The position numbers and the translations under genes were made by a program. A DNA stretch of 45,555 bases from a virus, in UHGV virus genome UHGV-2198558; one strand, written 5' to 3'. The notes under the pieces were generated by a model. That model was not told where the DNA came from. It searched no databases and was given only the letters and a program-made list of their open reading frames with translations. Positions 3,046 through 14,681 of the stretch are shown here, piece after piece (within the stretch, counting starts at the first letter, position 1; every line of letters begins with the position of its first letter).

Positions 3046-3681
3046 TTATACAGCCTTTTCCATCACTACCTCAGTCAAAGCCCTCTTGCATATCTCAGCA
3101 GGATTCCCGTTCGGCTTTATCCAGCTTTCAACGTCCTCTCTACTCAGTATCACCGGCATTCGGTCGTGGATGCTTCTCAGTTCCTCGGTTGCGTCCCGTG
3201 TGATTACCGCAAACACCGGGCAATTAACTCCGTTTCTCTCCTCGATCCTATACAACAGCCCAGCAAGCAGCGTAGATTCGGCTCCTTTCGGCTGTATCAG
3301 GTATTTATCGCCAACCTTCTTCTTTTTCCCGTCCGGACTCCTGAAATGCTCCCATTCAAAGTACCAACTGCTCGGAATTACGCATCTACTTCGGAACCAT
3401 GAGTCCTTCCACATTTCCTTCTGGTCAGCCGTTTCGAGGCGGCAGTTCACGATTGGAGCATCGGTCGCGTCATGACTGAAACCCCAGAGCATCGGAAAAA
3501 CTTCCATTCTTCCGTCCTTATTCGGTGCTAAAACCGCAGCAACATCAGTCGGACGCAGTTCACCGGACATAAACAGCGGTTTGCCGAGTTTTACCATGAT
3601 AGTATTCGCTAGCTCCAGTTTCTGTGCCCGTGTGATCAGCGGAGCGAACTGAGCAGGCTCTACATAGAAGCGTGTACACAT
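3046..3681 (-). CDS. SOS response-associated peptidase (SRAP / YedK / DUF159 family)
   Basis: Begins MCTRF with Cys at position 2 (family hallmark), plus a conserved HDRMPVIL segment; 211 aa. Confidence 0.8.
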   Translation of the reverse strand: MCTRFYVEPAQFAPLITRAQKLELANTIMVKLGKPLFMSGELRPTDVAAVLAPNKDGRMEVFPMLWGFSHDATDAPIVNCRLETADQKEMWKDSWFRSRCVIPSSWYFEWEHFRSPDGKKKKVGDKYLIQPKGAESTLLAGLLYRIEERNGVNCPVFAVITRDATEELRSIHDRMPVILSREDVESWIKPNGNPAEICKRALTEVVMEKAV

Positions 3682-3695
3682 AAGACCACGACCTT

Positions 3696-4253
3696 TCAGC
3701 CTTCGATCATTCTCAGCTTATAGTGTTTTCGGCAGAGTGCTGTATAACTCTCATTACCGCCGAGCTGTACCTGTTCTCCCTCTGTGACCATTTCACCGTT
3801 CAGGAGTCTTGCATTGAAGTGCGCTCTTTTGCCGCACCAGCAGATGGTCTTGATCTGCTCAATATCGTCTGCAAGCTCCATGAGCCGCTGTGCGCCGGGA
3901 AACAGATGACTCTGGAAGTCTGTCCGCAGGCCGTAGCAGATAACTGTGATGCCATGAAAATCCACAAGATCACTGAGCTTGTCTATCATTTCAGGTGACA
4001 GGAACTGCACCTCGTCAACGATGATACAGTCATAATGCTCACCATTATAGTCAGCAAGGAAGTTTTCAGCAAACTCGCAGGGTTCTTCAAGTCCGATGCG
4101 GGATTTTAGGTTCTTCGCACCGTCCCTGTCCTCGCATCTCGGCTTCAGCAGAAGCACTTTTTTGTCTCTCTCATAGTAGTTATATCGAACCATAAGCGCA
4201 TTGGCGGTCTTGGAGCTGCCCATTGCGCCGTATCTGAATATCAGTTTTGCCAT
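3696..4253 (-). CDS. tdk: Thymidine kinase
   Basis: P-loop GAMGSSKT, VDEVQF, and C-terminal zinc-binding cysteines (CWCGKRAHF...CRKH); 185 aa. GAGGAG RBS sits inside the 3' end of the repressor gene. Confidence 0.88.
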   Translation of the reverse strand: MAKLIFRYGAMGSSKTANALMVRYNYYERDKKVLLLKPRCEDRDGAKNLKSRIGLEEPCEFAENFLADYNGEHYDCIIVDEVQFLSPEMIDKLSDLVDFHGITVICYGLRTDFQSHLFPGAQRLMELADDIEQIKTICWCGKRAHFNARLLNGEMVTEGEQVQLGGNESYTALCRKHYKLRMIEG

Positions 4254-4258
4254 CTGCC

Positions 4259-5131
4259 TTACTCCTCATCGTCCTCGTGCATGACTTCATATCGCTTGAT
4301 ATCTCTCTTGCTTGCAATGGAAGCGGGTTCAAGGATACCGAGAACGCGCCCGATCAGAGTGACATTGTCATATTCTGTGAATGTCATGGTATCATACTTA
4401 TCATTAAACGATACCAGACCTTCTTCCTCATATATCTTTATGTATGTACTGTTTCCAACCATGAAAGCGCCGACCTCATCGTATTGCAGCTCCGGACAGC
4501 CGGGATACTTCTCCACAAGAACAAGGTCGCCGTCATGATACTCAGGCTCCATACTGTCGCCGTTGACAGGAAACACAAGGTCTGCCTGCCGTATTGCTGT
4601 GTTCGTATTCGGATACAGATAGATCGGTGTTCCGTTGTCCTCAAACTCCGCCCCGCCGTCAAAGCCTGCTGCAAGCCCCTTGTCGCAGAGTGTCAGTTTG
4701 ATGATCTCCGGGAAGCTGCCGACAGTCTCTGCCGCTTCAAGCGAGGATAGCAGACTGTCCATTGCAAGCTGGTGCGGATACGACAGTCCACGGTATCTCT
4801 CTACCATAGACTTTTCCTTATCAGTATAGGTATCTTGCTTGTTTTCGATGCCATATAGTTCATACAGCGTGATACCAAGTGCGTCACATAGCTTAGGAAC
4901 AACGCTGAAATCCGGGCGGGTTCTTCCGTTCTCCCAGTTACTGATAGCATTTGAGGTCACGCCGATTTTTTCTGCAATCACTTTCTGATCTAATTTTAGA
5001 CGCTCCCTGTAGTATTTGATGCGACCGCCAACCGCGTGAGCGTCCTTACGGTGGGCAGGATCAGAGATGTTACTCTTAATATCCTTGCCTCCCTGTGAGA
5101 CTGAGATATTCGGTTTCTTACGCTGTTTCAT
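4259..5131 (-). CDS. Prophage repressor, CI/LexA-like (XRE-type HTH plus S24 self-cleaving peptidase domain)
   Basis: HTH segment IKYYRERLKLDQKVIAEKIGVTSNAISNWENG; S24 motifs VNGDSMEPEY and GDLVLV. Start set to ATG 5131 (AAGGAG 9 nt upstream); the ORF-track start at 5149 is a TTG. Confidence 0.85.
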   Translation of the reverse strand: MKQRKKPNISVSQGGKDIKSNISDPAHRKDAHAVGGRIKYYRERLKLDQKVIAEKIGVTSNAISNWENGRTRPDFSVVPKLCDALGITLYELYGIENKQDTYTDKEKSMVERYRGLSYPHQLAMDSLLSSLEAAETVGSFPEIIKLTLCDKGLAAGFDGGAEFEDNGTPIYLYPNTNTAIRQADLVFPVNGDSMEPEYHDGDLVLVEKYPGCPELQYDEVGAFMVGNSTYIKIYEEEGLVSFNDKYDTMTFTEYDNVTLIGRVLGILEPASIASKRDIKRYEVMHEDDEE

Positions 5132-5291
5132 TACAAAGCTCTCCTTCAAGAATGTATGGGATAGTCAATCCTCAAAACGAACAAATATTCTTATTGAAAT
5201 CTGTGCAACCCTACAAAGTTTATCAAAGACTTTTCAACGCTGAAAACGTTAGAAATGCGAAATTTGGCGTAGGCATTGCATCTTTGATCAC

Positions 5292-5320
5292 ATTATAGCA
5301 CACAATCGGTGTTTTGTCAA
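5292..5320 (-). promoter_or_regulatory. Repressor-operon promoter (consensus sigma-70)
   Basis: Minus strand reads TTGACA, 17-nt spacer, TGcTATAAT: a perfect consensus. Confidence 0.6.
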
Positions 5321-5333
5321 TACAAAATTGCAC

Positions 5334-5362
5334 TTGCAATTCGTTTGACGGTGTGATATAAT
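5334..5362 (+). promoter_or_regulatory. Divergent rightward promoter
   Basis: TTGCAA, 17-nt spacer, TGaTATAAT; back-to-back with the repressor promoter. ATTGCA-type repeats (5274-5339) are candidate operator half-sites. Confidence 0.5.
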
Positions 5363-5563
5363 AGCAATGTCGGTATTCCGCCTACAGGAAAATGAGACCG
5401 AAGGCTGGTGCAGTGTGTCCGTCTTAAGGTGTGTGACAGGACAGACTGCCGGTCAGAGTACCGACAACTTCGCCATCAACCCACTTCGCCACGATAGATA
5501 TACAGAACAATAGAATGGAGCTAATGTTGGAAATACCATAAGTTGCGAAACAGGAGGGCGTAA

Positions 5564-7492
5564 ATGACTATATATCTTGATAGAGGACCGTTTCTCACCA
5601 TTCCCGACAAGCTGCATTCGGGGCAGTACAGAGTGATCCGCAACCCCGACTGGCACGGAGTACTGCCGGAGATCGTGTCCTTCACCGATTTTCTCAAATG
5701 GAATTACACACTGGAGTATGGTCAGTATATCCGCAAATTGCACTACTACCACCAGCTTCCGCTGCCGTGGGTCGTTCCACAGGATGCCGAGATAGAAACT
5801 GTCATCATCGAGGAAGGCAGATATGACCGCATTGATCACAATTCCTTTGATATGTATGTGATATGCGATGTCGTGTTCGAGATGAACGGCTGCCGGCAGT
5901 GCCAGAAGTATATCGTACACGGCTTTTACTGCTCTTACGGCGGTTCAGACTTTCTGTGCGGTGCGGAGCTCTACAATGGTCAGTTTATCCGGCTGAACAA
6001 TCCCTTAGATGAGTTTCTGGTTCCCATCCTTTCAAAGAAAGAATTTGCAAGCATTGCACAAGCAATCATCGACCACTACTATTCATACAAATCGAATTAT
6101 CCCTGCCGCATCAATACTGCTTCAATTGCAAAGGCAATGGGTCACGATATAAAGTATGCCAGACTGTCAAAAAACGGAAATGTCAAGTCCAAGCTGATCC
6201 TGGACAAGCGGGATACGACCGTCTATGATAAGGAATACAAAGCTGTCAAAATGCGGATCGACAGTCCTACGATCCTTGTGGACGAGTCATTGGAGGAGGA
6301 TGAAGCGCAGAACGCCATTATTCATGAGTGCGTTCACGCTTACCTTCACAACCTCTTCTATGAGCTGCAGAGCTACTATCGGAAAATGGTCGGCAGGAAG
6401 ATGCCGGAGTTCAATGACTACTTCTATTCCAAGACGCAGCGTAGCTGCCTGAAATGGATGGAAACACAGGCAAATGCCATCCCACGCTTTATTCAGATGC
6501 CGGAGGAGCAGGCATCCGATGTCATCCTGAACTTCTTCGAGCGACTCCCCGGAGAGCCTGACTGGGACGATTACAGAGAACTGATCGACCTTGTGAAATG
6601 GAAGTTCGGAGTATCCCGCAATGCTGCGAAGAAGCGTATCATTGAGCTTGGCTGGCCGGAGGTGCGCGGTGTGTATGTCTACAACACCACAGGATATGTT
6701 GAGGACTACGATGTAGAGCTAAGATTCCCGCAGGACTATACCTATACACTGTCATTCCGCCAAATCTCTGATGTGTTTGCATCCTGCGAGACCTTCGCAG
6801 AGCTTGTCCGTTCCAAGAAGTTCATCTATCTGGACGGTCATGTTGTGATCAACAGCGACAGGTATATCCGCAAGGAACACGGCTTAGCTATGGGCTTGAC
6901 AGAGTATGCTAGACACCACATGGCAGAGTGCTGTCTGGATTTCAAGCGTATCTACGCAGAATTCGACTACAGCTATACCTATGGCGAGCTACACAAGGAT
7001 GACCTGACCGAGATCACGGCCGAAAACCGTTCGTTCAGCGATGAACAGCGAAAGAAGATCCGCATGGCAATGTATGAGATCACAGAAGAAAACTATAAAC
7101 TGACCGTTCCTTCAGATGTCAACGAATTCGGCAAGGCGGTGCGTTTCCATATGGAGAGATGCGGTCTCACCTCGGATCTGGTTGCAGACCGCAGCGGCAT
7201 GGGTGTGAACACTGTCAATAAGATGCGCAGTGGCAAGAGAGTGAAGCTCGAAACAGTGCTAGCTTTTTGTGTCGCTTTGGAGCTTGAAGAGTCGTTCCGC
7301 ATTGACCTTATGCAGAAAGCGAAGGTTGATTATGATATGAGCAATCCTGCCCATCGGCTCTATGTCACGATCTTTGAGCTGATGCCGAAGGCAAATGTCT
7401 TTCAGATCAACGATCTGCTGAAGGCAGAAGGCTTTACGCCGTGGACGAGGGACTGCGAGGAAAAGAAGCGGTATGCTAAGAAAAGTATGTAA
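5564..7492 (+). CDS. Large regulatory protein: HExxH (ImmA/IrrE-like) metallopeptidase motif plus C-terminal XRE-type HTH
   Basis: 642 aa; CAGGAGGG RBS; IIHECVHAYLH motif mid-protein; C-terminal HTH (GLTSDLVADRSGMGVNTVNKMRSGKR). Confidence 0.7.
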   Translation: MTIYLDRGPFLTIPDKLHSGQYRVIRNPDWHGVLPEIVSFTDFLKWNYTLEYGQYIRKLHYYHQLPLPWVVPQDAEIETVIIEEGRYDRIDHNSFDMYVICDVVFEMNGCRQCQKYIVHGFYCSYGGSDFLCGAELYNGQFIRLNNPLDEFLVPILSKKEFASIAQAIIDHYYSYKSNYPCRINTASIAKAMGHDIKYARLSKNGNVKSKLILDKRDTTVYDKEYKAVKMRIDSPTILVDESLEEDEAQNAIIHECVHAYLHNLFYELQSYYRKMVGRKMPEFNDYFYSKTQRSCLKWMETQANAIPRFIQMPEEQASDVILNFFERLPGEPDWDDYRELIDLVKWKFGVSRNAAKKRIIELGWPEVRGVYVYNTTGYVEDYDVELRFPQDYTYTLSFRQISDVFASCETFAELVRSKKFIYLDGHVVINSDRYIRKEHGLAMGLTEYARHHMAECCLDFKRIYAEFDYSYTYGELHKDDLTEITAENRSFSDEQRKKIRMAMYEITEENYKLTVPSDVNEFGKAVRFHMERCGLTSDLVADRSGMGVNTVNKMRSGKRVKLETVLAFCVALELEESFRIDLMQKAKVDYDMSNPAHRLYVTIFELMPKANVFQINDLLKAEGFTPWTRDCEEKKRYAKKSM

Positions 7493-7506
7493 TAACGGCA
7501 TTTTCA

Positions 7507-7531
7507 GGAGGCTTTCGAGCCTCCTTTTTTT
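7507..7531 (+). terminator. Rho-independent terminator
   Basis: ggaggct / agcctcc stem with a ttcg tetraloop, followed by TTTTTTT. Confidence 0.8.
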
Positions 7532-7794
7532 ATGCCCTGAAATATTTTCATGAAGCCCCCAGAAAAAATGGGGGCGATTTGCGTTTTTGAAATAGTTTAG
7601 AGACAGAATGTTCATAGAATATCCATTTAATTTAGATGATATGAACAAGTGAAGATGATATATCAAAGTTGAGATAAGCACAGTGCATAAAAAGCAGCCC
7701 CCATTTTTTATGTATGTAAAAGAAGATTCGGATATGTTATGATATAGACACGGTCAAGGACAGGCACCACCTTCCAAGACTGAAACACCACAAT

Positions 7795-7915
7795 GCCGGA
7801 TGCATACGGCAGAGGATGTTCATATGATATCTGAACAGAATGCCATAGGTATACCCTGTGGTCGGAAGCCGATGTCATATGTCTACTCTGTGCTATGCAT
7901 CCGGCTATTTTTTTT
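7795..7915 (+). ncRNA. Candidate structured RNA element or complex terminator
   Basis: Perfect 12-bp inverted repeat gccggatgcata (7795-7806) / tatgcatccggc (7894-7905), extended by cagag/ctctg, enclosing about 70 nt and followed by T9 (7907-7915). No ORF with an RBS in the surrounding 600-bp intergenic region. Confidence 0.25.
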
Positions 7916-8140
7916 GCCGCGGCATTCGGAGCATGGCAATTAGATCATTACATTTGTTAGTCAGGGCGCGCACTGGCGGACAGATGCTCATAGCGGAAAT
8001 AACATCACGATTTGGAGTCTGTATAGACTGACAAGGTGTATTTCGTGTGGACATCGTCCCCTGCGTGCCTTTTTCTCTGGGACAGCAGTCGCGTTATGGG
8101 CATCTGCCGCTTGGTGTGTTCCTTGCAGAAAGGAACGATT

Positions 8141-8863
8141 ATGGAAAACGCAAATGTTCAGAATGCTGCCGCTATCACCGATAAGACCACCCTCGGCGAA
8201 CTGCTTGCAATGCTTGACCTCGCTGATAAGGCAGGCAAGATGCCGACACCGAGAGAACTGTTTGAGACTGCCGGTTCGCCGATAGCCGATATGAATGGCT
8301 GCACTCTCTTCAGCAACGGCTTCGCCATCTATCAGAATGTCACTGGGCGCACTGTTGTCTGGCTGCCGTACTGCAAGAGCTTCACCTATTACTTCGGCAA
8401 GCTCCGTGATTCCGAGAAAGACACGCTGACAGAGACCTATGAGCTGCCGGATGGATTTCTGGAAACACAGCCGTGGGTGATCGCAGTAACACTGATCGGC
8501 GACCATCGTGTGGAGGCAAACAGCATGAACCGCACCGGCAGCCGCAAGGATACCACAGATTATGACAGCGCCGATAACGGCGATAAAGACGGTGATGCAG
8601 AGGAGGCTTTGGCAGATCCGTATCGCAGGGCATTCAACTGGTATGACGGACGCATGGGCGAGAATCCGCAGGATGCCGTGGAGCGCAGAGAGACACGCGA
8701 GGAGATGCTTGCAGACATGACGGACAAGCAGCGTGAAGCCTTTATTATGTACTTCAGGGATGGTATGACGCAGGAAGAGATTGCTTCATATATAGGGGTA
8801 AGCCGTGATTCCATAAATGACAGGCTTGAAGGTGCTTTGAAAAAAGCAAAAAAATATTTTTAG
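8141..8863 (+). CDS. Sigma-70 region-4-like HTH protein (putative phage transcription regulator)
   Basis: C-terminus LTDKQREAFIMYFRDGMTQEEIASYIGVSRDSINDRLEGALKKAKK resembles sigma region 4; no region 2 recognised. Start at ATG 8141 after GAAAGGAA. Confidence 0.65.
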   Translation: MENANVQNAAAITDKTTLGELLAMLDLADKAGKMPTPRELFETAGSPIADMNGCTLFSNGFAIYQNVTGRTVVWLPYCKSFTYYFGKLRDSEKDTLTETYELPDGFLETQPWVIAVTLIGDHRVEANSMNRTGSRKDTTDYDSADNGDKDGDAEEALADPYRRAFNWYDGRMGENPQDAVERRETREEMLADMTDKQREAFIMYFRDGMTQEEIASYIGVSRDSINDRLEGALKKAKKYF

Positions 8864-11795: not shown

Positions 11796-14681
11796 GTGGT
11801 GATTTTATTGAGCAGACGTGTACTTTCCATCGACTTAGAGACCTATTCGGATGTAGACCTCCCGAACTGCGGTGTGTACCGCTATGTTGAGGGAGATTTC
11901 CATATCCTGCTGTTCGCATATGCATTTGACGATGAGGAGACAAAATGCGTGGATATGGCCTGCGGGGAGCAGCTCCCGGCAGAGGTCGTGGATGCGCTGC
12001 AGGATGACAGTATTATCAAATCGGCATGGAACGCACAGTTTGAGCGTACCTGCCTTTCAAAATATCTCGGTACGCAGATTTCTCCGGACTCGTGGCAATG
12101 CACGATGGTATGGGCGGCATCGCTTTCACTTCCGCTGAAGCTGGCAACGGCTGCACAGGCACTGAAAACTGCACAGCAGAAGGACGCTGTCGGTGAGCGT
12201 CTTATCCGTTATTTCTCTCTGCCCTGTAAGCCCACCAAAGCAAACGGCGGCAGAACAAGAAATCTGCCGGAACACGCCCCCGAAGACTGGAAGCTGTTCA
12301 AAAGCTACTGCATACAGGACGTGGAAACCGAGCGGGATATCCGCCGCAGGCTTGAAAAGTTCCCCCTGCTCCCGCAGGAATGGGACTACTACCACATGGA
12401 TCAGCGGATCAATGATCGCGGTATCCTGATCGACAAAGAGCTTGTGCAGCAGGCTATTATCTGCAATATGGCAATGTCCGAAGAAATGACAAAACGTGCA
12501 TACGCTCTGACAGGACTTGAAAATCCGAATTCCGTATCACAGCTCAAGGGATGGCTTGAGGAGCGTGGCATTGAGGTGGATTCCCTCGGCAAAAAGAATG
12601 TCGCTTCTCTTATCACAGACCTCGACAGGCACAGCGCAGACGGTGAGGCTCTGGATATGATGAAGCTGCGGTTGCAGATGGCAAAGTCCTCTGTGAAAAA
12701 GTATCAGGCGGCAGAGAGATACATCTGTCAGGACGGCAGGGCGCACGGACTGTTTCAGTTTTCCGGAGCTCAGCGAACACAGCGCTGGTGTCTTACCGGC
12801 GATCATGAAATACTGACAGATAAAGGCTGGCTCAGGCTTGATAATTGGCAGGGCGGTAAGATTGCTTGTTGGAATCCTAATCAGGAAATGGTCTCGTTCC
12901 AGAAAGCGAACGTATTGTGCTTTGAATATGACGGTCCTATCTACCGCTATGAGGACAAACGGATCGATCAGATCAGCACGCCGGATCACAAAATGCGTGT
13001 AAAGAAACGGTATAACGGCGAGTGGACGGATGACACTGTTGGCAATATGGAAAAGTATCGTCCTTCTATTCCGTTTACCGGACGCAGACAAACGATGCCC
13101 GGCTTGGAGCACGCAGAACTGAGGGTACTGGTGATGACGCAGGCTGACGGCAGCTATAAAGAAGATGGAATGCTCTGCTTCCATTTCAAGAAGAAAAGGA
13201 AAATAGAACGGTGCAAACATCTGCTCAGACAGGCGGGCATTTATTTCACAGTGAATGAATGCAGGACAGATGGAACAACGCAGATCAAGATTCCTTCCCG
13301 TGAGCAGCCGATGTATCTAAGAATGTTTCATAACAAGACATTTGGAATGTGGCTTCTCGATGAAAGCCCGGATGTTTTCTTTGATGAGCTTCGGTATTGG
13401 GACGGATCGCAAAGCGCCAAAAACAGTATCCAATATACCACAACGAACAAAGTGAATGCCGATATTGTTCAGGCTTTTGCTCATACAAGTGGTCGCTGTG
13501 CAAAAATGAAAACGGTCATCCGGGATAAAGAACACCCGAATTGGAGCGATGCATACTATCTCGATATATGGCTCACTCCGAAAAACTGTCATGAAATCAG
13601 AGTGAAGCCGACTATCTCGCAATTCAGCGGCAAAATATACTGTGCTGAAACCCCAACCGGATACTTCCTTGTAAGACGTAATGGTAAAGTGTGGGTAACA
13701 GGAAACAGCGGGCGCGGCATTCAATTACAGAACCTGCCGCAGAACCACATCTCTACCCTCGATGAAGCAAGAGAACTTGTCAAAATGGGCTGCTTTGACA
13801 TGATCGAAGCACTGTACGGCAATACGCCGGATATCCTGTCACAGCTTATCCGCACGATGCTCATTCCGAAGGACGGCTGTGAATTTATCGTGGCAGACTT
13901 CTCCGCCATTGAAGCGAGAGTACTTGCGTGGCTTGCCGGAGAACAGTGGCGGCTCGATGCCTTCAAGCGTGGCGAGGATATTTACTGTGCATCCGCATCG
14001 CAAATGTTCGGTGTTCCGGTCGTGAAGCACGGCATCAATGGAGAACTGCGGCAGAAAGGCAAGGTCGCTGAGCTTGCCTGTGGTTACGGAGGTGGCAGCG
14101 GTGCGCTGATCTCTATGGGTGCGCTGGATATGGGACTGAAAGAGGATGAACTTCCCGACATCATTTCAAGCTGGCGCGATGCAAACCCGGAGATCGTGAA
14201 ATTCTGGTATGCCGTGGAGAAAGCGGCGATCGAAACAGTCAAGGACCACGCGGAAAGAACGGTCGGCAGGATCGGTTTTCAGTTCTCTGCAAATACACTG
14301 TGGATCGTGCTGCCGTCCGGGCGCAGACTTGCCTACATCAAGCCGAGGTTACAGCCGAACCGTTTCGGGCGTATGGCGCTGACCTTTGAAGGACTCGGTG
14401 CAAACAACAAATGGACGCGCGGTGAGACATACAGCGGCAAGCTGACGGAGAACATCACACAGGCGACCGCCCGTGACCTGCTTGCAGAGGCAATGCACCG
14501 AATGGAGCTTGCGGGACTTGACATAGTCGGTCATGTGCATGATGAGGTCATTTTGGAAGTGCCGAAAAGACAATATACGGTCGATGATGTGTGCAATATC
14601 ATGAATCAAAATCCGAGATGGGCAGACGGTCTGCCCTTATCATCTGCCGGATATACCGGCAATTACTACTTCAAAGACTGA
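11796..14681 (+). CDS. Family-A DNA polymerase (3'-5' exonuclease plus polymerase) interrupted by an intein
   Basis: Exo motif SIDLETYSD; polymerase motif A FIVADFSAIEARVLAW, motif B RQKGKVAELACGYGGG, motif C HVHDEVILE. Start uncertain (GTG 11796 or TTG 11808). Confidence 0.85.
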   Translation: MVILLSRRVLSIDLETYSDVDLPNCGVYRYVEGDFHILLFAYAFDDEETKCVDMACGEQLPAEVVDALQDDSIIKSAWNAQFERTCLSKYLGTQISPDSWQCTMVWAASLSLPLKLATAAQALKTAQQKDAVGERLIRYFSLPCKPTKANGGRTRNLPEHAPEDWKLFKSYCIQDVETERDIRRRLEKFPLLPQEWDYYHMDQRINDRGILIDKELVQQAIICNMAMSEEMTKRAYALTGLENPNSVSQLKGWLEERGIEVDSLGKKNVASLITDLDRHSADGEALDMMKLRLQMAKSSVKKYQAAERYICQDGRAHGLFQFSGAQRTQRWCLTGDHEILTDKGWLRLDNWQGGKIACWNPNQEMVSFQKANVLCFEYDGPIYRYEDKRIDQISTPDHKMRVKKRYNGEWTDDTVGNMEKYRPSIPFTGRRQTMPGLEHAELRVLVMTQADGSYKEDGMLCFHFKKKRKIERCKHLLRQAGIYFTVNECRTDGTTQIKIPSREQPMYLRMFHNKTFGMWLLDESPDVFFDELRYWDGSQSAKNSIQYTTTNKVNADIVQAFAHTSGRCAKMKTVIRDKEHPNWSDAYYLDIWLTPKNCHEIRVKPTISQFSGKIYCAETPTGYFLVRRNGKVWVTGNSGRGIQLQNLPQNHISTLDEARELVKMGCFDMIEALYGNTPDILSQLIRTMLIPKDGCEFIVADFSAIEARVLAWLAGEQWRLDAFKRGEDIYCASASQMFGVPVVKHGINGELRQKGKVAELACGYGGGSGALISMGALDMGLKEDELPDIISSWRDANPEIVKFWYAVEKAAIETVKDHAERTVGRIGFQFSANTLWIVLPSGRRLAYIKPRLQPNRFGRMALTFEGLGANNKWTRGETYSGKLTENITQATARDLLAEAMHRMELAGLDIVGHVHDEVILEVPKRQYTVDDVCNIMNQNPRWADGLPLSSAGYTGNYYFKD
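12789..13706 (+). mobile_element. Intein (306 aa) within the DNA polymerase, with candidate LAGLIDADG homing-endonuclease motifs
   Basis: Starts CLTGDHEILTDKGW (block A, Cys1) and ends VWVTGN followed by Ser; internal LRVLVMTQADGSY and LRYWDGSQ motifs. Inserted in ...GAQRTQRW / SGRGIQLQNLP. Confidence 0.7.

Follow-up and report, generated by a model that had tools for sequence, protein, structure and literature searches.

A large M78 peptidase–XRE protein with a candidate cis-regulatory leader RNA in the genomic position of Cro

What kind of regulator faces a prophage repressor when the gene in the position of Cro encodes a protein of 642 amino acids? The question arises in a virus genome of 45,555 nucleotides (UHGV-2198558), referred to here over its whole length as the window. 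The repressor (4259..5149, − strand, 296 aa) is a CI/LexA/HdiR-like protein with HTH_3 (E 2e-15) and Peptidase_S24 (E 3e-13) domains, and direct reading of its sequence reveals GDSM and an Ala-Gly candidate cleavage site. Divergent from it lies the gene for the 642-aa protein (5564..7492 including the stop codon, + strand), which begins with an ATG preceded by AGGAGGG. This open reading frame had been singled out in an original prediction as an occupant of the 'Cro slot', and both its extent and orientation and, as far as genomic position goes, that description are confirmed. The 414-nt gap between the repressor and the 642-aa gene contains no plausible Cro-type open reading frame. The 642-aa gene heads the early/replication genes and faces a DNA-damage-type repressor unit.

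In the window, a prophage whose replication module is of the phi-m46.1/Heliusvirales type, the 642-aa gene is followed by genes for a sigma-70 region-4 protein, a DUF2800 exonuclease, a Gp2.5-like SSB, DNA polymerase A, a helicase and a primase. The first of these (8138–8863, +) has sigma-70 region 4 only (Sigma70_r4_2, E 9e-10), is conserved in the related loci L004 and L005, and parallels the CapH/CapP systems that include a sigma-70-family factor. DNA polymerase A (11796–14681, +) is 961 aa long, against 652 aa in L004; its residues ~332–640 match intein-bearing PHROGs, starting with CLTGDHEILT and ending with VTGN|S, and the insert is probably an intein with a homing endonuclease. On the other side, genes for a thymidine kinase and a SRAP (SOS-response-associated peptidase) protein lie co-oriented and directly downstream of the S24 repressor (3046–4253, −), and relatives have a UmuC-like polymerase in their place; with such neighbours, the repressor operon is similar to a DNA-damage-tolerance cassette of the HdiR type, and the S24 protein need not be the sole master repressor. 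Also on the repressor side of the element is a 365-aa open reading frame (1802–2899, −) with a second HExxH motif (HELGH), for which we found no Pfam, PHROG, NCBIfam or PADLOC match.

Domain architecture of the 642-aa protein

The N-terminal region (residues 1–137; 5564..5974, +), delimited from model secondary structure and alignment, is the most variable part of the family. It comprises in the model a helix (residues 40–61) and a four-strand antiparallel sheet (76–136), and has weak cystatin/NTF2-like matches. Residues 138–370 (5975..6673, +) form a zinc-peptidase core of the M78 (ImmA/IrrE/CapP) type with a trailing helical block. Within this core HECVH (6323..6337, +) provides the HExxH zinc-binding and catalytic motif through H254, E255 and H258, and the segment W-M-E-T-Q-A (residues 298–303; 6455..6472, +) contains E300. 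Across an alignment of 24 relatives reaching down to ~20% identity, H254, E255, C256, H258, H262, Q302, A303, H426, T446, Y448, C456 and F460 are invariant. E300 is invariant in alignment A1 and at least 90% conserved in alignment A2, and the block M-E300-T-Q-A-N corresponds to the M78-type E-x-x-A-N. By analogy with CapP, in which the zinc site is made up of H97, E98, H101 and E128, the last being the third ligand (PMC13228613), E300 is the putative third zinc ligand; the spacing from HExxH to this Glu is 41 residues in the 642-aa protein versus 26 in CapP (H101 to E128). Read from the sequence, HExxH together with 'ME.QAN' is the M78 zinc site.

The Pfam Peptidase_M78 profile matches residues 228–359 marginally, scoring 22.1 bits where the gathering score is 22.0, and recognizes 10 of 24 family members at E ≤ 0.01 (best 9.8e-8). 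We assign the M78 fold to the protein, and with a profile match at threshold and HExxH conserved throughout the 24 sequences, the predicted combination of an ImmA/IrrE-type peptidase with a C-terminal XRE helix-turn-helix (HTH) is upheld. PDB searches by sequence returned HTH matches only for the 642-aa protein and no M78 chain for the family profile. In BFVD the matches are small phage 'IrrE proteins', and a full-length structural match is absent. The protein has no match in PADLOC or NCBIfam; in PHROGs it has a strong full-length match (E 1e-76) to phrog_4031, of unknown function.

A small β-rich domain (residues 371–460; 6674..6943, +), delimited from the model and from conservation, holds the best-conserved block of the family, LTEYARHHMAECCLDF (…HHMAECCLDF). 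The last five of the invariant residues lie here, and C457 is at least 90% conserved. This domain bears on a reading in which the protein is a transcription factor of the PrpR/RamB type with a ligand- or metal-sensing, M78-like pseudo-enzyme domain: a Cys/His cluster of C256, H426, C456 and C457 would then bind a metal or a cluster. We consider this improbable. More than 20 diverged sequences retain the catalytic Glu and the three zinc ligands, as a pseudo-enzyme would not be expected to do, and IrrE and CapP outscore PrpR.

A linker modelled at low confidence (residues 461–520; 6944..7123, +) opens with a conserved Y-x-Y-T-x-G-E-L segment, reaches its lowest conservation at residues 481–520, and leads to an XRE-type HTH (residues 521–585) followed by two helices (595–621; 7124..7489, +). 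The Pfam HTH matches, at residues 521–576, are below threshold; the domain nevertheless classes as XRE/Cro-C1, since it combines a five-helix fold with profile matches (HTH_3, HTH_31 and HTH_26). The HTH and two helices resemble ImmR, DdrO and CapH and are laid out like the substrate/repressor half in the two-protein systems. The original prediction had called peptidase before HTH the reverse of the usual order. This was half right: IrrE and CapP already run from peptidase to HTH to GAF (PMC13228613), and the unusual feature is an additional bona fide XRE HTH with two helices at the far C terminus and no GAF domain, the domain that helps to form the single-stranded DNA (ssDNA) groove of IrrE and CapP.

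The nearest known systems differ from the 642-aa protein in several respects. CapP, an ssDNA-activated peptidase, and CapH, an HTH repressor, together control CBASS and other defence operons; CapH–CapP fusions have been reported, and some such systems include a sigma-70-family factor. Compared with this pair, the 642-aa protein lacks GAF and the conserved Cys of the cysteine switch, has an extra N-terminal α/β domain and an extra β domain, places its HTH C-terminal of the peptidase (a comparison that leaves aside the order in the published fusions), and is encoded in a prophage immunity region rather than a defence operon. A CapP-style cysteine switch is rejected here: there is no family-wide Cys between residues 259 and 299, where the equivalent position falls, and C295 is conserved only among close relatives. 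In CapP this loop lies between HExxH and the Glu ligand, and it is missing from some CapP homologues (PMC13228613). IrrE/PprI of Deinococcus is ~280 aa long with a GAF domain, has its substrate DdrO encoded separately and serves a chromosomal stress response, whereas the 642-aa family belongs to mobile elements. ImmA and ImmR of ICEBs1 and phage phi105, together with the small ImmA-like proteins of Gram-positive phages, share both the peptidase family and the setting, the switch of prophages and conjugative elements; ImmA, however, is ~170 aa long, shares a transcript with its repressor and lacks an HTH, and a canonical small ImmA coexists with the large protein in relatives of the locus.

Transcription unit and leader RNA

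Two promoter-like sites stand back to back between the divergent genes. That of the 642-aa gene (TTGCAA-17-TATAAT with a TG extension; 5334..5362, +) is near-consensus and conserved in relatives, and that of the repressor operon (TTGACA-17-TATAAT with TG; 5292..5320, −) is a perfect consensus lying 13 nt from the + strand −35 box. An intrinsic terminator, AGGAGGCTTTCGAGCCTCCT with a T-run (7506..7533, +; hairpin 7506–7525), begins 14 nt after the stop codon, and is identical in sequence in L004 even though the two proteins are 59% identical. At L047 the family gene is followed by a strong promoter, not a terminator. With its own promoter, leader and terminator, the 642-aa gene is an independent transcription unit.

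The ~640 nt of non-coding DNA between this gene and the sigma-like gene (7493–8137) contain two terminator-like hairpins (7506–7525 and 7555–7575), a 20-nt inverted repeat (7795–7814/7886–7905) followed by a U-run, and another inverted repeat (7981–7995/8092–8106). No sigma-70 consensus promoter was found in this interval, and its features suggest regulated read-through, antitermination or a further RNA element.

A search of the promoter regions of the window and of L047 for a recurring operator yielded, as repeats, two mirrored −10 boxes only. The perfect palindrome ATTGCACTTGCAAT (5327–5340, between the promoters) was rejected as an operator: its 7 matches in the window are no significant excess over the 3.7 expected, and relatives do not conserve it. 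Its overlap with the −35 box is probably fortuitous. A DNA specificity shared with the repressor was likewise rejected, because the HTH domains of the two proteins show no specific similarity. Set against Cro/MOR-type lytic-side regulators (~60–80 aa), the 642-aa protein is about ten times larger, has an enzyme domain and is monocistronic with its own terminator; with no shared operator found and an HTH unrelated to that of the repressor, it is Cro-like in genomic position alone.

The gene is preceded by a structured 5′ leader RNA of ~200 nt (5367..5563, +), recognized from nucleotide conservation and covariation. All relatives of at least 58% protein identity conserve the nucleotide sequence of the leader, which is confined to this clade, the one that also has the S24-type repressor. 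It folds into an outer stem P1 (5368–5378/5456–5466), a variable insert and an inner hairpin, and independent folds recover the same hairpins. The inner hairpin has an invariant loop, (U)AAGGUGUGU (GGUGUG), and a stem that varies by lineage (GUC/GAC, UGCC/GGCA, CUGCC/GGCAG, GCUGU/GCAGC or UUCGG/CGGAA). We assessed covariation on a MAFFT alignment with no fitting to any structure; slid partners and 500 shuffles served as controls. Pairing holds in 92.4% of cells versus 33–49% with slid partners, and 8 pairs are changed on both sides versus 1–4 in the slid controls; none of the 500 shuffles reaches these values.

A predicted helix between the invariant leader tail ACUUCGCCAUCAACCCACUUCGCCAC and the equally invariant GUUGCGAAACAGGAGGGCG would sequester the Shine-Dalgarno sequence, which lies within the latter; as both sides are invariant, this helix is without covariation support.

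A covariance model of the leader finds 40 full-length copies, all immediately upstream of a family gene, and a weak copy at the expected place in L045; the rest of the window and the surroundings of distant homologues gave no copy. A 17-mer scan of viral contigs gave mostly chance matches in coding sequence ('DNFAINP'), and a 22-mer scan of metagenomes was specific. Rfam contains no match to the leader at gathering score or at E ≤ 10. A 48-aa open reading frame within the leader (5367..5513) was rejected as a leader peptide, being unconserved and ending in L004 at a stop after 8 codons. From its sequence conservation and covariation, the leader is a structured RNA with no Rfam family and a candidate new cis-regulatory RNA.

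Genomic settings of the family

The exact 642-aa protein is already public as DAZ37233.1, 'helix-turn-helix domain protein [Caudoviricetes sp.]'. An exhaustive profile search of 50%-identity cluster representatives gave 6,833 matches at E ≤ 1e-3, 2,361 at ≤ 1e-10 and 949 at ≤ 1e-30, and among the matches listed nearly all are 600–660 aa long and match end to end. The family occurs in prophages and conjugative elements of Firmicutes. Members are found, among others, in Ruminococcus flavefaciens, other Oscillospiraceae, Lachnospiraceae, Butyrivibrio and Izemoplasmatales, as well as in phi-SsUD.1-type prophages of Streptococcus sanguinis, S. suis and S. gallolyticus and in 'Ca. Heliusvirales' gut phages. 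The nearest genomic relative (96%) is in an R. flavefaciens MAG. Our literature searches found no study of this family.

Some homologues 86–95% identical to part of the query have different N termini: P0033 and P0034 (DUF2800), P0038 (DUF7768), P0066 (HNH), P0086 (thymidine kinase) and P0098 (serine recombinase). These may be real swaps, rearrangements, or assembly or gene-calling artefacts. R. flavefaciens MA2007, the strain of L043, has a second, seemingly truncated copy (L055, 6001–6885; 294 aa, corresponding to residues 1–298), opposite which an XRE, ImmA and UmuC-like unit is kept.

We surveyed the context of ~58 family loci. All 11 loci of at least 58% identity have the same layout, with the gene opposite an HTH-S24 repressor, and three S. 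sanguinis loci (~28% identity) have it opposite HTH-S24 and UmuC, the layout of the HdiR-type SOS cassette (PMC8565304). This arrangement, recurring independently in the two groups, speaks for a dedicated anti-repressor, an option raised in the original prediction; its peptidase would cleave the S24 repressor, or the DNA-binding fragment left by its self-cleavage, and would provide either a second induction input or a positive feedback that makes induction irreversible. M78 peptidases do cleave XRE repressors in ImmA/ImmR, IrrE/DdrO and CapP/CapH. The idea also keeps some plausibility because S24 self-cleavage alone derepresses incompletely in two cases: HdiR needs Clp in addition for full derepression (PMC8565304) and S. 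aureus CI needs ClpX (PMC10584840).

Other loci weaken this explanation. In the 48–55% identity clade, that of L047, the gene stands opposite an XRE-only repressor followed by a canonical small ImmA (162 aa; M78 E 1e-13) and a UmuC-like polymerase, and at L083 (23% identity) it stands opposite an XRE protein and a small M78 protein, so that here the large protein faces XRE-only repressors that have their own canonical ImmA. An adjacent divergent XRE gene, with or without S24, is present at ~20 of the ~58 loci and absent from about two thirds. The unrelatedness of the two HTH domains also counts against it, and why a dedicated protease should need an XRE HTH module of its own is left unexplained. 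Since ImmR and ImmA pairs co-occur with the gene and many loci have no adjacent repressor, we regard an anti-repressor as unlikely, though worth keeping in view.

Where no divergent repressor is present, the gene comes after co-directional restriction–modification (R-M) or cargo genes, or lies in a conjugative element, flanked by a WYL regulator and DUF3801/TraG. Among distant members, some come immediately after R-M systems, others beside tet(W) or near radical-SAM, Fic and AAA genes. Such neighbours would suit accessory cargo off the lysis–lysogeny switch, that is, a module for defence, anti-defence or exclusion or one resembling a toxin–antitoxin pair (COG2856-XRE). CapP/CapH-type modules regulate defence operons, and the left edge of the window encodes an MzaB-like ATPase of defence-cargo type (78–1589, −; HATPase_c_3; PADLOC 2e-92; NCBIfam 368 bits versus a cut-off of 850). 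The family protein itself, however, is without a PADLOC match, its position opposite a repressor is conserved in the close clades, and in the phages with such neighbours the gene still directly precedes the replication module. A cargo role has little probability in our view. In all settings alike, the gene shares its strand with the early/replication or transfer genes and lies just upstream of them.

A possible protease–repressor switch

Because an enzyme half and a C-terminal, substrate-like half are joined in one protein, we tentatively favour, with somewhat less than even confidence, a single-chain protease–repressor switch analogous to ImmA–ImmR, IrrE–DdrO and CapP–CapH that would do a lytic-side job in the position of Cro. 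ImmA, IrrE and CapP cut XRE repressors between the HTH and the dimerization region, and IrrE and CapP are stimulated by ssDNA bound between the peptidase and GAF domains. While the architecture, the conserved catalytic residues, the transcription unit and the position are observed, we infer from these precedents that the protein binds DNA, what activates it and what it cleaves. The HTH end would bind DNA in the immunity/early region, as a Cro-type protein would in this slot. The peptidase end would be latent until a signal arrives, which by analogy with CapP and IrrE may be ssDNA or DNA damage. Once activated, the peptidase would cut an XRE-type module, be it the tail of the same protein, in cis or within a dimer, or a neighbouring repressor, self-cleavage being a conjecture; cleavage would commit the element to lytic growth or transfer. 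In the clade of at least 58% identity, the leader RNA, predicted to hide the ribosome-binding site, may also gate translation. The missing GAF domain, the missing cysteine switch and the operator searches that identified no site count against the model. Moreover, should the S24 protein repress the promoter, a lysogen would lack the 642-aa protein, which could then not serve as the primary sensor. Overall, the evidence partly supports the interpretation offered in the original prediction.

ImmA/IrrE/CapP-type protease–repressor pairs are a recurring bacterial and mobile-element route from DNA damage to gene expression. This family, which counts hundreds to thousands of sequence clusters, would add to them a distinct form, a single chain bearing extra domains. 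It is a rather remote prospect that, throughout a widespread set of gut Firmicutes prophages (relatives of Heliusvirales and of Streptococcus phi-m46.1/phi-SsUD.1) and in conjugative elements, Cro has been replaced by a DNA-tethered, signal-activated IrrE/CapP-like protease–XRE fusion, with a riboswitch-like leader gating its synthesis in the Ruminococcus clade. As cultured R. flavefaciens 007c and MA2007 carry close relatives (90% and 71%), the family and its leader are directly testable. Should the protein be merely an accessory regulator, the analysis would still give a solid annotation to PHROG 4031 and to many 'helix-turn-helix protein' entries. The family is placed where prophages that abound in the human and ruminant gut take their lysis–lysogeny decision, and if the broader proposal is true, that decision would integrate a second input (a metabolite, metal/redox state or ssDNA) independent of RecA-driven S24 cleavage.
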